From: Minisyncoccota bacterium
GTDB taxonomy: Bacteria; Patescibacteriota; Minisyncoccia; Phycocordibacterales; UBA9973
DNA length: 59,443 nucleotides
Direction of reading: 5' to 3'
NCBI GenBank assembly: GCA_039915165.1
Contig: JBDSNU010000018.1
Location: 232,617 to 292,059, forward strand
Made by a program: the position numbers and the translations under genes. Positions 4,292 to 34,251 of the stretch are shown here, piece after piece. The notes beneath the pieces were generated by a model. It was given only the letters and a program-made list of their open reading frames with translations. It was not told the DNA's origin and made no database searches. How positions within the stretch are numbered: position 1 is the first letter of the stretch; each line of letters begins with the position of its first letter.

Positions 4292-6217
4292 TTATGAAGA
4301 GAGGATTACTGGCAGCACTAGTGGACGTTTTGCTGTCTGTTGGAAGAGATATTTAGAAACGATATCTGCAACAATGTTTTTGATCTGATCAATGTTTGGT
4401 TGCTGCTGACCTTTTGTTTCTTGTTCAATAGTACGCTTGATCAACGCACGTGTGTGACGAACAAGTTCTTGAGATTCTTTTAAATACACGAATCCACGAG
4501 AGATAATATCTGGAGATTTTTTAAGTAGACCAGTTTTGCTGTCGAGTAATGCTACGACAACGAACATACCATCTTCTGCTAGCATTTGACGATCGCGAAT
4601 CACCACGTTTTGTTCATCGCCAACAGAGAAGCCATCAACCATCATAGGTGCAGACGGCGCTTTCTCTTTACGGACACTGATCTTTGTACCACCATCAGTG
4701 ATTTCAATAATTGATCCATTGTCTGGCACAACGATATGATCTTCTGCCATACCCATTTCCATCACCAAGTCCTTGTGGAGCTGCAGACGGTAGTGGTTAC
4801 CGTGAATTGGAATGAAGAACTTCTCATGCATCTTGCGGTGCAACCAACGTACGTCTTCTTTGTTACCGTGTCCTGTTGCGTGAACATATTCTTCGCCAGG
4901 AGTACGGTATCCAATGATCTTGATTCCTTGTCGAGCAATACCATCTTTCATTTTTTCGATAGCACGTTCGTTACCAGGAATGATTGAAGATGAAAGAATA
5001 ACAGTGTCACCTTTCTTCAGAGAAAAGTTTTTGTCAGTCTTGTTTGCTGCACGATTAAGTCCAGAAAATTCTTCACCTTGTCCACCTGTTGAAAGGATAA
5101 GGATTTTGTGTGCCGGGTACTTATCAATATCAGTCATTGGAATAATAGTGTCCTTTGCAGGCTTCAACAAACCAGCTTCGATAGCGATATCGATGTTAGT
5201 TTTCATTGAGCGGCCATTAAGAGCAACTTTCTTACCAAGCTCTTCTGCTGTCTTGATCAATCCGATCAATCGAGTGATGTGTGATGCAAAGGCAGCAATG
5301 ATGATACGTCCATTGATACGGCGCAAAATATTTGCGAGACCTGTGTGAACTTTTGATTCAGCAAGAGAGAAGCCTTCGTTTTCGATGTTGGTAGAGTCCG
5401 TCATCAAAAGCAATACTTTTGCAGTATCAAAATACTTGTATGCTTTTTCTTCTTCAGCACTAACTACGCCATCGATCTGATCGAGCTTATAGTCACCAGG
5501 GTTCACAATATCCCCAAATGGTGTTTCGATGATCACACCCATTGAGTCTGGAATAGTATGAGTTACGCCCCAGAAACGAACTTTGATATTACCAAGAGTT
5601 ATTGACTCATCTTTTTCAACAATAACAGTATTGATAGCAGGAAGTGTAGGGAATTCACTCTGACGTTTCTTCAGCATCAAGACACTGAGGTTACGAGAAT
5701 ACACTGGTGGATTACCGATACGTGAAAGTACCAACGGTACGCCGCCGATGTGGTCAAGGTGCCCGTGAGTAATGATCAATGCGCGGATTTTGTCCTTGCG
5801 TTCCTCGAGGTATCGAGTATTAGGGATGATGTAGTCAACACCAGGAGTATTTTCATTAGAGAAGTGCATACCAGCATCGATAACAATGATGTCGTCACCG
5901 ATTTCGATAGCAGTCATGTTTTTTCCGATTTCTTCTACGCCACCAAGAGGTATAACGCGAATAGTACCTGGTTCTGGGTCAGGGATGTGAGCAGTTTTTC
6001 GTTCTGATATTTCAGTAACTGCGCCAACTTCTGGCTTTGGCCATGCTGGACGACGCTGTCTGTCATGAGGACGGCGGCCGTTAGCGAATGAGCGCTTTGG
6101 TTTAGTAGCAGCAGTTTGTCCTGAAGTAGTTGCATCAGTCGCTCGGCTTGGAGGAGTTGAAGTACGTGGTGCTGGTCGTGTAAAGAGTTCTTTTTTTGGT
6201 TGATTGTTTGGTTCCAT
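4292..6217 (-). CDS. rnj: Ribonuclease J
   Basis: PLGGVEEIGKNMT, THGHLDHIGG (MBL motif), THTIPD, HATGHG and PIHG; low-complexity N-terminal extension. Confidence 0.95.
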   Translation of the reverse strand: MEPNNQPKKELFTRPAPRTSTPPSRATDATTSGQTAATKPKRSFANGRRPHDRQRRPAWPKPEVGAVTEISERKTAHIPDPEPGTIRVIPLGGVEEIGKNMTAIEIGDDIIVIDAGMHFSNENTPGVDYIIPNTRYLEERKDKIRALIITHGHLDHIGGVPLVLSRIGNPPVYSRNLSVLMLKKRQSEFPTLPAINTVIVEKDESITLGNIKVRFWGVTHTIPDSMGVIIETPFGDIVNPGDYKLDQIDGVVSAEEEKAYKYFDTAKVLLLMTDSTNIENEGFSLAESKVHTGLANILRRINGRIIIAAFASHITRLIGLIKTAEELGKKVALNGRSMKTNIDIAIEAGLLKPAKDTIIPMTDIDKYPAHKILILSTGGQGEEFSGLNRAANKTDKNFSLKKGDTVILSSSIIPGNERAIEKMKDGIARQGIKIIGYRTPGEEYVHATGHGNKEDVRWLHRKMHEKFFIPIHGNHYRLQLHKDLVMEMGMAEDHIVVPDNGSIIEITDGGTKISVRKEKAPSAPMMVDGFSVGDEQNVVIRDRQMLAEDGMFVVVALLDSKTGLLKKSPDIISRGFVYLKESQELVRHTRALIKRTIEQETKGQQQPNIDQIKNIVADIVSKYLFQQTAKRPLVLPVILSS

Positions 6218-7755: not shown

Positions 7756-7971
7756 TTAGAGAGCGATTACCCAAATAGAGAGGGCAGCGAAGAGAACAGC
7801 TACTATAATAGTCAGAACGAACAAAACGCGTTCGAGACCTCGTCGAGTTTGAAAAGCTGACATGCTATCGCCGAAGTTACTGCCAGTATCTCCGCTAGGG
7901 CGCTGAAGAAGTATCAAAGCAATAAGTGCGATGCCGGTGATTAATTGAAGACTGTGTAGCGTTGCTGTCAT
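7756..7971 (-). CDS. secG: Preprotein translocase subunit SecG
   Basis: 71 aa, two TM segments, LILLQRPSGDTGSNFG and TRRGLERVL. Upstream promoter TTGCAT-N17-TATGAT. Confidence 0.85.
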   Translation of the reverse strand: MTATLHSLQLITGIALIALILLQRPSGDTGSNFGDSMSAFQTRRGLERVLFVLTIIVAVLFAALSIWVIAL

Positions 7972-8050: not shown

Positions 8051-8079
8051 TTGACAAATATGTATAAAGGTGCTATGAT
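8051..8079 (+). promoter_or_regulatory. Near-consensus sigma70 promoter driving an uncharacterised transcript
   Basis: TTGACA (8051-8056), 17-nt spacer, TGc-TATGAT (-10 at 8074-8079). Confidence 0.8.
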
Positions 8080-8085
8080 GTACTC

Positions 8086-8445
8086 AGACCGGTCATAAAG
8101 ATCGTGTACATTAAATCCGCGACAATCATGCGTAACAAATCACCATCAACGAGTATTTTGTACATGGCAGTTATCTGCACACAAAATATATTTTAACTTA
8201 CCGGCGCCGGGGCCCGCGACACTACAGTGTTGAAGGGGCACACTACAGCCTCCAAAAGAAAGGAAGCAAATGAAACGCGTATTAAAACCTCCACGATGAG
8301 GACTACAAAGAGAGATCTTTGACCAACAGTTCAATGTTTAACCATTATGACGGGCATTCACAAGATGCCCGCCCGCACACAACGAGTCTGAAAGGACCAC
8401 ACACATATATATAACCGATTCTCATTAGAGGATCGGTTTTTTTAT
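8086..8445 (+). ncRNA. Putative ~330-nt structured non-coding RNA, family unknown
   Basis: Bounded by the promoter and a terminator, with no plus-strand ORF longer than ~26 aa that I could find. Long-range stem 8091-8103/8314-8324, plus hairpins gcag-ttat-ctgc and cgggcat-tcacaag-atgcccg. Confidence 0.55.
8413..8445 (+). terminator. Intrinsic terminator
   Basis: aaccgattctc-attag-aggatcggtt followed by a T tract. Confidence 0.75.
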
Positions 8446-8504
8446 TATCGTGTGCTATGCTTTTACTAAATAAACAGATTCGTAAACAATTAAATTAATT
8501 TTGT

Positions 8505-8612
8505 ATGAAAAATTACTGTGGAATTGGAAAAGATTCACCAATCGGAAGTTCGCCAATTAAAAATGGTGTAGGTACTAAAGACACAATGCTGTCCGGTGGC
8601 GTCAAAGGGTAA
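8505..8612 (+). CDS. Putative 35-aa small peptide MKNYCGIGKDSPIGSSPIKNGVGTKDTMLSGGVKG
   Basis: Below the ORF-track cut-off. It has an upstream extended -10 (TGc-TATGCT, ~8452-8460), an A-rich leader and a downstream terminator. Confidence 0.45.
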   Translation: MKNYCGIGKDSPIGSSPIKNGVGTKDTMLSGGVKG

Positions 8613-8630
8613 TCACAGAATTTCCCTAAG

Positions 8631-8662
8631 CAAAAACTCTCAGAATATATCTGAGAGTTTTT
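8631..8662. terminator. Bidirectional terminator between the small ORF and the capA-like gene
   Basis: aaaaactctcaga-atata-tctgagagttttt. Confidence 0.8.
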
Positions 8663-9699
8663 TATTTGGACAACGAGTCTAATAGTATTTTTGCTTGATC
8701 AGTTGGATCGAGAGATGGAATACCATCTTTTGAAAGTACTATTGAGGTGAAGGCGGTGTTGGTGGGTGCGAAGCGTGTGGAGGATGTATCTGCAGCATTT
8801 GAGAAAATTGTAGTATAAATGCCACCGAGAGAAAGGTTGCCAGCGGGTGTAGCAAGTCTGCCTTTGCCGCCAACAAAGTTGCCCAGTGAATAGGCAATAG
8901 GCTTACCATTAAAAGTTTCTGTTTTGCGCAACACATGTGGACCGTCACCAAGTACGAGATCTGCGCCTGCATTGATCGCAGTATGTGCAACAGCTTGAAC
9001 ATTGCCACGGTTTTCTGTGCCCATATATTCAGTTGTTCCGGTTACTGCGGTTTTTGTAGCCCCTTCTGATCCGCCGTGAAAAATTACTACCACAATGTCA
9101 TTATCTTTTTTTAATGCAGCAACAGTCGATGCGATATAGGCATAGTCGTTAATTGTTTCAGTAGGTTCAGTACTTGAAAGTCCCATGATGCCAACACGAA
9201 CACCTTTGATGGTCATACTTGTAGTTGATTTATCTGGAGCAATATAAGCAATGCCAACACGGTCGAGCTCAGCTTCTGTATCTTTTAATCCGGCATCACC
9301 ATAATCATATGAATGGTTATTTATTAAACTAACGAAATCAAACCCAGCGGCTTTGAGTGTGTCAGCAAAAGAAGGCTCGCCTTGAAAGGCGTGACACATT
9401 GAACTGATGTACATACATTTTGATTTGCGGCCATAATGCGCAAATGTTCCTTCGAGGTTGCCCATCATGAAGTCTGGCTGTTCGAGTGCATCAGTAACGT
9501 TGTTGAGTACTGTTAAGTTATATCCAATATCACTAGAAGGCACCATGTCGCCAACCCAGCCAATACTAAGAGTCTTCGCAGGTGCAACAGTAGGAGATTC
9601 AACTTTGACGATCGGATCACTGCTAGGAATAACAGAAAAATGCCACACCGCTGCAGCGGCTACAAGGCATATAACTATGAGGAAAAACTTTCTTATCAT
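8662..9699 (-). CDS. CapA-family metallophosphatase (poly-gamma-glutamate synthesis protein-like)
   Basis: VGDMV, GNLEG, NNHSYDYG, VIFHGGSE, GDGPHVL and YSLGNF; N-terminal TM segment. Confidence 0.85.
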   Translation of the reverse strand: MIRKFFLIVICLVAAAAVWHFSVIPSSDPIVKVESPTVAPAKTLSIGWVGDMVPSSDIGYNLTVLNNVTDALEQPDFMMGNLEGTFAHYGRKSKCMYISSMCHAFQGEPSFADTLKAAGFDFVSLINNHSYDYGDAGLKDTEAELDRVGIAYIAPDKSTTSMTIKGVRVGIMGLSSTEPTETINDYAYIASTVAALKKDNDIVVVIFHGGSEGATKTAVTGTTEYMGTENRGNVQAVAHTAINAGADLVLGDGPHVLRKTETFNGKPIAYSLGNFVGGKGRLATPAGNLSLGGIYTTIFSNAADTSSTRFAPTNTAFTSIVLSKDGIPSLDPTDQAKILLDSLSK

Positions 9700-11645
9700 A
9701 ACAGTGCGTAATCAATCAATCGTTTGTTGAGATCTGTTGAGAGCACTTTCAAGCGCACTCGATCGCCAATACGAAACTCCTTTTTAGTACTTTTACCGAC
9801 AATGGTCAAGTTTTTGTCATCGTATTCGTAATAATCATTACCAATATCTCGAAGACGAACCATGCCTTCACAGCGAGTTTCTTTTTCTTCAACGAAGAGG
9901 CCATTCTTTGAAACACCAGTAACAATACCGTCAAATTTTTCACCAACATGGCTGGTCATGTATTCAACTTGCTTGTATTTGATACTTGCACGCTCTGCAT
10001 CGGCTGCTTCTTTTTCGCGCTGTGATGAATGTTGAGCGATCTCATCATAGTAGTGCCACATTTCTTTAGGAATAGTTTTGTGCTGCAAGTACTCGAAGAG
10101 TAGACGATGCACTACGAGGTCAGGATAACGACGAATAGGTGAAGTGAAGTGCGTGTAATATTTAAATGCTAAACCGTAGTGACCAATATTTTTTGTAGAA
10201 TAAATAGCTTTGGCCATTGAGCGAACGATTGCTGTTTGCACGGTTTCTTTTTCTGGTTTGCCATTCAGTGACTGTACGAGATCATTAAGTTCTTTTGAAG
10301 GAATAACACCATCGTCATTTACGGTGAGCTTATATCCGATGCGCTTCAAAAAGAGCTGTAGGTTTTCTACTCGTTCTGGATCTGGTGCATCATGAACACG
10401 GTAGACGAAAACTTCTTCAGCATGTTTGTCACCAGTTGCAATAAATTCTGCTACCTTGCGGTTAGCAAGCAACATCAATTCTTCAATCATGTGATGAGTT
10501 TCGCCGCGAACTTTTTTGTATACGCCGAGTGGATGACCATCAGTATCAAGTTTGAATTTCACTTCTTCTGTTTCTAGAGAAATAGCGCCTTCTTCGAAAC
10601 GTTTCTTTTCTAAGAATTTACCAACAGCAAGTGCCGCTTCAAGTTCTTTCAAATAAGGTCCTTCTTTTGTATCAAGTACTGCTTGTGCACTTTCATAGCT
10701 AAATCGCTGGTGAGAATAAATAACAGTCTTGCCGAACCATTGGTCAACGATTTGCATTTTTGGAGTAAAGGTAAATACAGCAGAGAAGGTAAGTCGATCT
10801 ACATTAGGATTTAAACTACAAAGATCATTTGAAAGCACTTCAGGCAACATCGGAATTGTACGGTCTACCAAATACACAGACGTTGCTCGTTCCGTTGCTT
10901 CTTTATCAATAGGATGACCATGTTGTACATAGTGCGATACATCAGCGATGTGAACACCGATTTCAGTATTGCCGTCCGCTAAAAAGTTTACAGAGATTGC
11001 ATCATCGAAGTCTTTTGCATCTTCAGGGTCAATAGTGAACGTAACAATCGGACGGAAGTCGCGGCGATTATTTTTTTCTTCCTCAGTAATACCATGGTCA
11101 CTGATCTCATGCGCTTCTTTGATAACTTCAGCAGGGTAGTCACTGCCAAATCCTTTTTCAAGTGCCAGTGAAAGCATTTCCGCATTGTTTTCAAGTGGCT
11201 TGCCGAGTACGTGAGTGATCTCACCTTTTGGTGCTGCCATGGGATCATTCCATTCATAAATACGACAAAATACTTTGTTACCAAGTACTGCGCCATTGAG
11301 TTTGTCCGCAGGAATGATGATAGCAGTGTACATACGGCCGTCATTAGAAGTGATAACATTGTTACCATTTTCAAATGTCAGCGTGCCACTGTACCCAACT
11401 TTTGATCGGCGAGTAACATCGAGAACTTTTCCTTCTGGATTGTTTTCACGAGAGCCAGGAGCAATCATTGCTGTGATCTCTACTTTTACAGTGTCACTAT
11501 GAAAAGCTTTGTTCAATGCTTCACGGGGAACTTCGACTGTAATGCCGAGGTCTCGTACTTTTACGAACCCTGTTCCTTTTGTTGAAATATTAATCTGTCC
11601 TTCGTACGTTGCGCCGACTTTCAATTCCGGTGAAGTTTGTTCCAT
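9696..11645 (-). CDS. rnr: Ribonuclease R
   Basis: FTIDPEDAKDFDDAIS, HIADVSHYV, SVYLVDRTIPMLP and YTHFTSPIRRYPDL; C-terminal S1 domain. Confidence 0.95.
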   Translation of the reverse strand: MEQTSPELKVGATYEGQINISTKGTGFVKVRDLGITVEVPREALNKAFHSDTVKVEITAMIAPGSRENNPEGKVLDVTRRSKVGYSGTLTFENGNNVITSNDGRMYTAIIIPADKLNGAVLGNKVFCRIYEWNDPMAAPKGEITHVLGKPLENNAEMLSLALEKGFGSDYPAEVIKEAHEISDHGITEEEKNNRRDFRPIVTFTIDPEDAKDFDDAISVNFLADGNTEIGVHIADVSHYVQHGHPIDKEATERATSVYLVDRTIPMLPEVLSNDLCSLNPNVDRLTFSAVFTFTPKMQIVDQWFGKTVIYSHQRFSYESAQAVLDTKEGPYLKELEAALAVGKFLEKKRFEEGAISLETEEVKFKLDTDGHPLGVYKKVRGETHHMIEELMLLANRKVAEFIATGDKHAEEVFVYRVHDAPDPERVENLQLFLKRIGYKLTVNDDGVIPSKELNDLVQSLNGKPEKETVQTAIVRSMAKAIYSTKNIGHYGLAFKYYTHFTSPIRRYPDLVVHRLLFEYLQHKTIPKEMWHYYDEIAQHSSQREKEAADAERASIKYKQVEYMTSHVGEKFDGIVTGVSKNGLFVEEKETRCEGMVRLRDIGNDYYEYDDKNLTIVGKSTKKEFRIGDRVRLKVLSTDLNKRLIDYALL

Positions 11646-12921: not shown

Positions 12922-13003
12922 CAGCCGAGGGTCAGGTACTATTGACTATTAATACAAAATGTGCTATTATTATAGCAGAAATTAACCCTTTAAAAACATA
13001 TAT

Positions 13004-33215: not shown

Positions 33216-33349
33216 CAGTACCATTTTTGCCTACTTTTATCAAGGTTTAGCATATGTGCTTTGCTAAGCAACGCACATATTGACTTTTAGTTCAAAATGT
33301 GCTATTATATAAATAATAAATAAAAACGTACAAACCTTAAAAAATCAAT

Positions 33350-34138: not shown

Positions 34139-34251
34139 TCAAAAATTAAAAGCCCTATATTATGGGGCTTTTTATATTGACATTTAGTACAAAATGTGCT
34201 ATGATAATACTGAAATTAAATCCACAAAAACCTTTTAAAACCAAATAAAAA

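Follow-up and report, generated by a model that had tools for sequence, protein, structure and literature searches.

We describe a putative RNA gene in a 59,443-nucleotide (nt) stretch of DNA from a Minisyncoccota bacterium (contig JBDSNU010000018.1), the whole of which we call the window and whose CapA, SecG and RNase R proteins assign it to Candidatus Nomurabacteria/Paceibacteria. Our preferred reading, to which we give somewhat better than even chances, is that positions 8085-8443 of the forward (+) strand form a stand-alone, largely non-coding small RNA (sRNA) gene of an uncatalogued family, restricted to one Nomurabacteria/Paceibacteria subclade, whose product acts in trans and is possibly dual-function. 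That this is a genuine independent RNA gene is held more firmly than any particular mechanism. Judged from sequence comparison, the locus appears to be a conserved, fast-evolving, strongly promoted and terminated unit with covarying hairpins and conserved unpaired motifs.

The transcription unit and its relatives

The unit lies between secG (7756-7971, -) and capA (8662-9699, -), in a spacer of 690 nt. It is headed by a predicted sigma-70-type promoter (8051-8079, +) comprising TTGACA (8051-8056), a 17-nt spacer, a TG extension (8071-8072) and TATGAT (8074-8079). An earlier reading of this region, hereafter the original prediction, had described a near-perfect TTGACA-17-TATGAT promoter, and the match to consensus is indeed 11/12 positions plus the TG extension, a quality reached by four promoters in the 59-kb window. 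The same CTTGACAAA...TGCTATGAT promoter also heads the homologous units of L162, L164, L167, L172, L173 and L174 (loci of relatives are given L numbers). From the distance to the -10 box, the 5' end is predicted at CAGA (8085-8088, +), a start found again in the units of L164, L003 and L172 and replaced by CAGC in L168; since position +1 carries no start codon, the unit is not a leaderless messenger RNA (mRNA). The strong terminator that had been announced at the other end is an intrinsic terminator (8413-8443, +) with an 11-bp stem (8413-8438), a 4-nt loop and a T run, so that the inferred transcript extends from about 8085 to 8443 and measures about 355 nt.

This transcript folds at -96.5 kcal/mol, with a z-score against shuffles of -4.58 on the plus strand versus -2.08 on the minus strand. 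A separate set of shuffles gave -5.0, and removing the terminator left -4.25; the median plus-strand z-score across the 11 units compared below is about -4. The expectation of a discrete unit, more structured than chance (z -4.58 to -5.0), is thus borne out, as is that of no substantial open reading frame (ORF): the longest plus-strand ORFs inside the unit are of 30-31 amino acids (aa) with GTG or TTG starts, 31 aa being the maximum.

Promoter-to-terminator units occupy the same spacer in the same orientation in 12/14 relatives with a CapA identity of at least 68%. In the two other close relatives (2/14) the unit is missing from the syntenic spacer, with synteny intact, and no more distant relative with conserved synteny has a unit of the window type. 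We set apart L174 and L170 as divergent and compared the window with ten relatives (11 units, 200-462 nt long): L162/L163 (CapA 81% identical to that of the window, unit of 356 nt), L164/L165 (79%, 323 nt), L002 (78%, 269 nt), L166 (75%, 240 nt), L167 (73%, 406 nt), L168/L169 (72%, 361 nt), L172 (71%, 200 nt), L173 (71%, 462 nt), L003 (68%, 291 nt) and L004 (68%, 251 nt). The unit of L174 (CapA 69%) is more divergent, about 290 nt long and without the 3' module described below, while the 113-nt unit of L170 (1526-1631) reaches only E 0.009 with the model of that module and has little or no similarity to the window RNA. The spacer of L006 (CapA 58%; 5600-5790) holds an unrelated 232-nt promoter-to-terminator unit. 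Spacer length is 24-65 nt in L008, L009, L010 and L012, 90 nt in L171, 133 nt on the P0005 contig and about 200 nt, mostly unresolved N, in L007.

The homology is apparent only on reading syntenic spacers. Searches of the first 81 loci with the region, using blastn and nhmmer, matched solely the identical contig L001, and a metagenome scan with a CapA alignment returned mainly distant relatives. Phage genomes and viral contigs gave no match to the RNA region, and self-comparison of the window found neither a second copy nor any long complementarity.

The RNA also matches no catalogued family. Scanned against the 4227 models of Rfam, the whole window returned tRNA-Thr only at gathering thresholds, and the region returned at E <= 10 just chance matches driven by the terminator (Qrr and STnc240, for example); no family matched at E <= 5 in the spacers of nine homologous loci. 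These scans exclude transfer-messenger RNA (tmRNA, permuted forms included), RNase P, 6S, signal recognition particle (SRP) RNA, T-box, riboswitch and known ribozyme families.

Hairpins and conserved unpaired motifs

The 3' module runs from hairpin A through 6-12 nt, AAYGA, hairpin B, CACAC and AUAUAUA to the terminator. Nine 3' modules were aligned with MAFFT, and RNAalifold predicts hairpin B and the terminator from the alignment. Hairpin B (GUCU-GAAA-GGAC, 8386-8397, +) directly follows the AACGA anchor (8381-8385, +) and has changed on both sides in 4/4 pairs across the nine sequences, with 87.5% of cells paired; the terminator shows compensatory changes in 6/10 pairs, with 92% of cells paired. 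Taken together, the two have 91% of cells paired and both-side changes in 10/14 pairs. The observed covariation score was reached by 0/500 shuffles, and sliding the partner by 1-3 columns brought pairing down to 28-57%. Alignment of the region upstream of secG, which the original prediction had proposed as a check, thus finds a conserved 3' module in which 10/14 pairs are compensatory.

Hairpin A (8351-8371, +; 7-8 bp), already pointed out in the original prediction, is present as described. It is stable and stands 6-12 nt before AAYGA in 9/9 units, with stem sequences that are all different (z -2.3 to -4.3); MAFFT misaligned it, and it was compared by anchoring on AAYGA. It is included in a 36-nt block, CATTATGACGGGCATTCACAAGATGCCCGCCCGCAC, which the window and L162 share without a mismatch. 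In the flanking genes, identity to the window at four-fold degenerate sites is 55% for L162, 44% for L164 and 35-49% for the others, and because the 36-nt block and the near-invariant promoter persist despite this 35-55% identity, the unit itself appears to be under constraint.

Between hairpin B and the terminator lies the CA- and AU-rich linker CACACACAUAUAUAU (8398-8412, +), in which CACAC/CAAAC and then AUAUA are conserved. It is unpaired in every fold and is a candidate effector or seed region. Judged against 200 dinucleotide shuffles of the 11 units, as for all motifs below, ACATATA occurs in 5/11 units and in 0/200 shuffles. A covariance model of the 3' module scores its nine training members at 54-85 bits, recovers L002 (E 8.5e-5), which was left out of the training, and has a single hit in the window.

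Weak matches to this model (E about 1e-3) were seen in L005 (3400-3690) and L082 (3322-3426), relatives with a CapA identity of 59% and broken synteny. They fall between gltX and a gene for a SpoU-type methylase, in a spacer about 330 nt long with a strong terminator at its end. Either a distant homologue or another sRNA may be present here.

Local folding of the 5' half predicts a 5'-proximal stem-loop, P1 (CGGUC-AUAAA-GAUCG, 8090-8104, +), with equivalents in L164 (CGGUC/GACCG) and L003 (GCCGG/CUGGC); a 5'-proximal stem-loop is predicted in 8/11 units. It is followed by the motifs ACAUUAAAUC and UAACAAAUCACC around a 3-bp hairpin (CGC 8118-8120/GCG 8130-8132; 8105-8144, +), a region common to the window, L164, L003, L162, L002 and L167. 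Next come hairpin P3 of the fold (8153-8189, +), built from GUAUUUUGU/ACAAAAUAU with an inner GCAG/CUGC, of which L162 retains the outer stem with an inner stem now GCC/GGC, and then UUUUAAC and an 18-nt G+C-only run (8191-8218, +).

Several of these motifs recur across the units: TTTAAC in 8/11, CCGGC in 8/11, CCGGCC in 6/11 and GCGTAAC in 4/11, each in 0/200 shuffles, and AGAGATC likewise recurs above the shuffles. The G+C-only run contains the perfect palindrome announced at 8201-8210, CCGGCGCCGG, and its palindromic counterparts read GCGGCCGGCCGC in L173 and CCGGCCGG in L166. A palindrome within a G+C-only run is unsurprising by itself; G+C-only palindromes are, at 4.3 per kb, ninefold denser in the units than in the window (0.49 per kb), which holds six of at least 8 nt. 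The direct repeat claimed just beyond, ACACTACAG at 8219 and 8240, is also there. The unit contains no tandem repeats and is therefore not a guide-RNA or type III toxin-antitoxin array.

These comparisons support local hairpins only and make the RNA a chain of them. The 11-bp long-range helix first proposed between 8091-8103 (GGTCATAAAGATC) and 8314-8324 can form, with a 2-nt bulge, but is not conserved in relatives. The stretch 8089-8103 has three competing partners (8314-8324, 8345-8354 and the local hairpin 8090-8104), of which only the local hairpin recurs in relatives (L164, L003). L162 has lost the 5' arm yet keeps the "partner" sequence UUAUGAC, which leaves the long-range helices of the single-sequence fold unsupported. 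A helix between 8089-8098 and 8345-8354, considered as another candidate, was rejected because relatives do not keep it. CAGAC and GTCTG, thought to pair the 5' end with the 3' end, both exist, at 8085 and 8386, but GTCTG is the 5' arm of hairpin B. Where GTGTACA had been proposed to pair with TGTACAT, the letters at 8105-8111 are TGTACAT and those at 8159-8165 are the same, so that a self-complementary core is repeated directly.

Proposed role and competing explanations

Under the preferred reading, a very strong constitutive-type promoter would start the RNA and the intrinsic terminator would end it, and the product would be a trans-acting riboregulator, its ends perhaps shielded by the 5' stem-loop and the terminator hairpin from RNase J and RNase R, both encoded next door. 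Its effector surface would be the conserved unpaired stretches, chiefly the linker at 8398-8412, which could base-pair with target mRNAs or bind an RNA-binding protein. A central mini-ORF, described below, is perhaps translated as well, which would make the RNA dual-function; because the peptide is not conserved, any role of the mini-ORF would then lie in the act of translation. From its distribution, the RNA seems to be accessory and dispensable, not housekeeping, and was probably lost twice.

Several points weigh against a trans-acting, largely non-coding RNA. The promoter, the transcription start and the terminator are predictions. The family is very heterogeneous (200-462 nt), the alignment outside the 3' module is unreliable, and the roughly 11 independent sequences are too few for a formal covariation test. 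The units of L002 and L004 scarcely exceed shuffles in structure. When the linker was compared with the 46 translation-start regions of the window, no outlier emerged as a target (best -9.3 versus mean -4.8 kcal/mol). Lastly, most units combine a purine-rich element with a start codon, which suggests some translation, and the three closest units retain MK...(K/N)PPR in frame with third-position changes.

These last points bear on the alternative that survives best, which we nevertheless consider unlikely: a small mRNA or dual-function RNA whose main product is the micro-peptide MKRVLKPPR, encoded by a mini-ORF of 9 codons (ATG..TGA, 8270-8299, +) behind the purine-rich element AAAAGAAAGGAAG (8254-8266, +), with flanks that control translation or stability. 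By a strict pattern, 6/11 units have a GGA-type motif and an ATG or GTG no more than 10 nt away; by eye the number is about 8/11, with L162 and L173 showing a start codon behind a looser A/G-rich stretch. The third-position changes in the three closest units are synonymous, the length difference is a multiple of 3, and the A-rich, unstructured upstream sequence is like the 5' untranslated regions (UTRs) of the host's other genes. Beyond those three units, however, the mini-ORF peptides are unrelated, with lengths between 7 and about 33 aa, and L166 uses a different frame for the shared CCUCC. L172 has neither purine-rich element nor mini-ORF, yet its 5' end persists together with most of its 3' module (AACGAG, hairpin B, the CACAC linker and the terminator), and conservation is best in the promoter and the 3' module, neither of which is part of the ORF. 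Going by these sequences, translation of the mini-ORF is possible, and the peptide is unlikely to be the function. We also weighed a coding role for an ORF that spans hairpin A (MFNHYDGHSQ... in both the window and L162) and rejected it, as the frame shifts in L164 relative to the AACGAG anchor.

It is improbable that the RNA product is functionless, whether because the act of strong convergent transcription is what counts, insulating secG from rnr-capA read-through, or because the unit is decaying as a remnant. In favour, the units differ extremely in length and sequence, their promoter and terminator vary least, and two close relatives have lost the unit with synteny unchanged. On the other hand, internal motifs and the 3' module are conserved well beyond synonymous sites, with compensatory changes in the stems, a pattern at odds with transcription alone being what matters.

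The conserved Shine-Dalgarno-like site is unusual because the host genome hardly uses Shine-Dalgarno sequences: such a motif precedes just 4/41 ORFs of at least 150 aa in the window, which makes the genome nearly Shine-Dalgarno-free. We see it as quite improbable that the unit represents an RNA specific to the Candidate Phyla Radiation (CPR) that engages cellular machinery instead of pairing as an antisense RNA. Such an RNA would capture ribosomes through this start, one of the few strong Shine-Dalgarno-like starts in a near-Shine-Dalgarno-free, largely leaderless genome, and might associate with itself through the CCGGCGCCGG-type run, since perfect palindromes so short cannot fold back.

Distinctly improbable is a cis-acting leader or attenuator, in which a conditional terminator (8413-8443), perhaps controlled by the mini-ORF, gates the ORF at 8505-8612. 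A small ORF does follow on the same strand in 7/11 units, and an ORF of 122 aa in one more (L173), and a short leader ORF, hairpins and a terminator resemble classical attenuators. L164 and L167, however, have no downstream gene, their terminator abutting the convergent capA stop codon, and the downstream ORFs are not the same from species to species, each being served by a separate extended -10 (TGCTATGCT or TGCTATGAT) just past the terminator, in the window as in L002, L162, L168 and L172. Given these separate promoters and the two units without a downstream gene, we take the unit to be independent of the genes that follow it. No alternative antiterminator pairing was seen with the 5' half of the terminator.

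A type I toxin mRNA, or another selfish or accessory cassette, would account for the patchiness and fast evolution of the unit, and is very improbable. Presence varies among close relatives, the spacer is an island with small ORFs and, in L003, an IS200/RAYT-like gene, the long, structured RNA encloses a small ORF, and the L002 peptide MCSHFLNLVYLLVVFK is hydrophobic. MKRVLKPPR and most other peptides are instead short and hydrophilic, the unit contains no predicted antisense promoter or RNA, and a hok-like pairing of 5' and 3' ends is not conserved. The window holds one copy in 59 kb, and phage and viral collections have no match.

The idea of a highly derived housekeeping RNA (tmRNA, RNase P RNA, 6S RNA or SRP RNA) is close to refuted: the size is like that of tmRNA and RNase P RNA, and secG, rnr, smpB and ssrA are neighbours in Bacillus subtilis, but ARAGORN and Rfam are negative for the window and the homologous loci, and two of the 14 close relatives, like all distant syntenic ones, lack the unit in the syntenic spacer, while its length varies from 200 to 462 nt where it is present. 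The original prediction had been reminded of tmRNA while remarking that the tRNA-like domain is missing. The second remark holds, as ARAGORN detected no tmRNA or tRNA-like domain in the window or in 11 homologous loci; the first does not, since no tmRNA model, standard or permuted, matched at E <= 10. The frame GCA AAT GAA (ANE...), superficially like the start of the E. coli tag, is present from 8266 and reads ANETRIKTSTMRTTKRDL-stop, but it is not conserved as a tag: it ends ...TKRDL in the window and ...STM-stop in L164 and reads YYETTCCRSK... in L162. A tmRNA tag typically ends ...ALAA. No RNase P model matched at E <= 10 and the 5'-3' pairing is not conserved among homologues; CAGACCGGUCAUA, tried as the CR-V element of RNase P, was dropped because its would-be partner is the covarying hairpin B. 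For 6S RNA, Rfam gave no match and comparative folding backs local hairpins only. The other suggestion made at the outset, a new large class of non-coding RNA, was overstated, the RNA having no conserved long-range helices and occurring in one subclade only.

Neighbourhood of the unit and likeness to known RNAs

On the far side of capA, rnr (9696-11645, -) overlaps that gene, and genes for an SBP_bac_5 protein and RNase J stand farther along; RNase R, RNase J and KhpA are all encoded by neighbours of the RNA unit. The order rnr-capA-secG-sbp-rnj is widely retained among relatives. Within it, the capA-secG spacer is a variable island. In L003 it contains a 250-aa IS200/RAYT-like ORF (5144-5896) flanked by inverted copies of ATCGTGACGCCTTGCTTCACGATA, and extra small membrane-protein ORFs of about 90-150 aa lie on the strand of the RNA in L004, L166 (4528-4824), L172 (4520-4972) and L173 (2596-2964).

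A second small unit follows the RNA in the window (8453-8669). It has an extended -10 promoter (TG 8453-8454, TATGCT 8456-8461), a 35-aa ORF (8505-8612; MKNYCGIGKDSPIGSSPIKNGVGTKDTMLSGGVKG) and a bidirectional terminator (8625-8669) that also serves capA. In L002, L166, L168 and L172, the RNA is likewise followed by related small ORFs, with G-x-G-K-G-S-P and a ...G(T/R)(K/R)DTML motif; a database search found no homologue of this family. A 16-nt stretch of the RNA (8178-8193; CACACAAAATATATTT) shows 81% complementarity to the region around the start of the downstream ORF (8492-8507). This complementarity is probably due to chance, as the stretch is AT-rich and belongs to the 3' arm of hairpin P3, and no matching complementarity was seen by eye in L162.

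Other near-consensus promoters of the window (12942-12970, 33280-33308 and 34177-34205) have the design TTGAC(T/A), then TGTGCTAT(T/G)AT. Small proteins, predicted to lie in the membrane or to be secreted, follow those at 33280 and 34177, and their 5' UTRs are A-rich and without Shine-Dalgarno sequences. Many start codons of the window stand 6-10 nt past a TAnnnT box (e.g., 1720, 45573, 46593, 47899 and 50993 on the plus strand, and secG at 7971 on the minus strand), a spacing that suggests widespread leaderless mRNAs in the host genome. Upstream of secG, TATGAT is followed by GTTTCACCT and then ATG, an arrangement kept in all relatives.

If the preferred reading of an sRNA gene holds, the unit founds a new family of a known kind, without a match in Rfam: a strongly promoted RNA held at one locus across a clade of ultra-small, uncultured bacteria. 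Our literature search found no paper on regulatory RNAs of CPR bacteria, and the RNA offers a concrete candidate for studies of riboregulation in organisms whose translation apparently starts without the help of Shine-Dalgarno sequences. Its importance is moderate, since it would be a lineage-restricted accessory RNA and not a missing housekeeping RNA.

Among known RNAs, tmRNA shares with the window RNA a similar size, the vicinity of rnr and secG and an A-rich stretch ahead of a short open frame; the window RNA differs in having no tRNA-like domain, no pseudoknot ring and no conserved hydrophobic or Ala-Ala tag end, and in not being universal. CsrB/RsmZ, which act on CsrA, and CrcZ, which acts on Hfq/Crc, are likewise 300-400 nt long and highly expressed in design, with recurring short unpaired motifs between hairpins (UUAAC, AAAUC and A-rich, ARN-like motifs in the window RNA, a recurrence judged partly by eye, with enrichment found for TTTAAC and GTAAC only). 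In contrast to them, the window RNA has few motif copies (2-4 per RNA) and no GGA-in-loop repeats. As a generic stand-alone sRNA gene would, the unit has its own promoter and terminator and a position conserved in 12/14 close relatives. It is reminiscent of dual-function regulatory RNAs of Firmicutes that are long and modular, namely RNAIII of Staphylococcus, which encodes hld, and SR1 of Bacillus, which encodes SR1P. Like them, it runs for several hundred nt from a strong promoter of its own to an intrinsic terminator, consists of successive local hairpins and encloses a small ORF, and some of its hairpins and unpaired motifs are conserved across species while the remainder diverges fast. Unlike them, its peptide is much shorter and not conserved, it has no similarity to either in sequence or in Rfam, and their classical mechanism, the pairing of C-rich loops to Shine-Dalgarno sites, is unlikely in a host almost without such sites.

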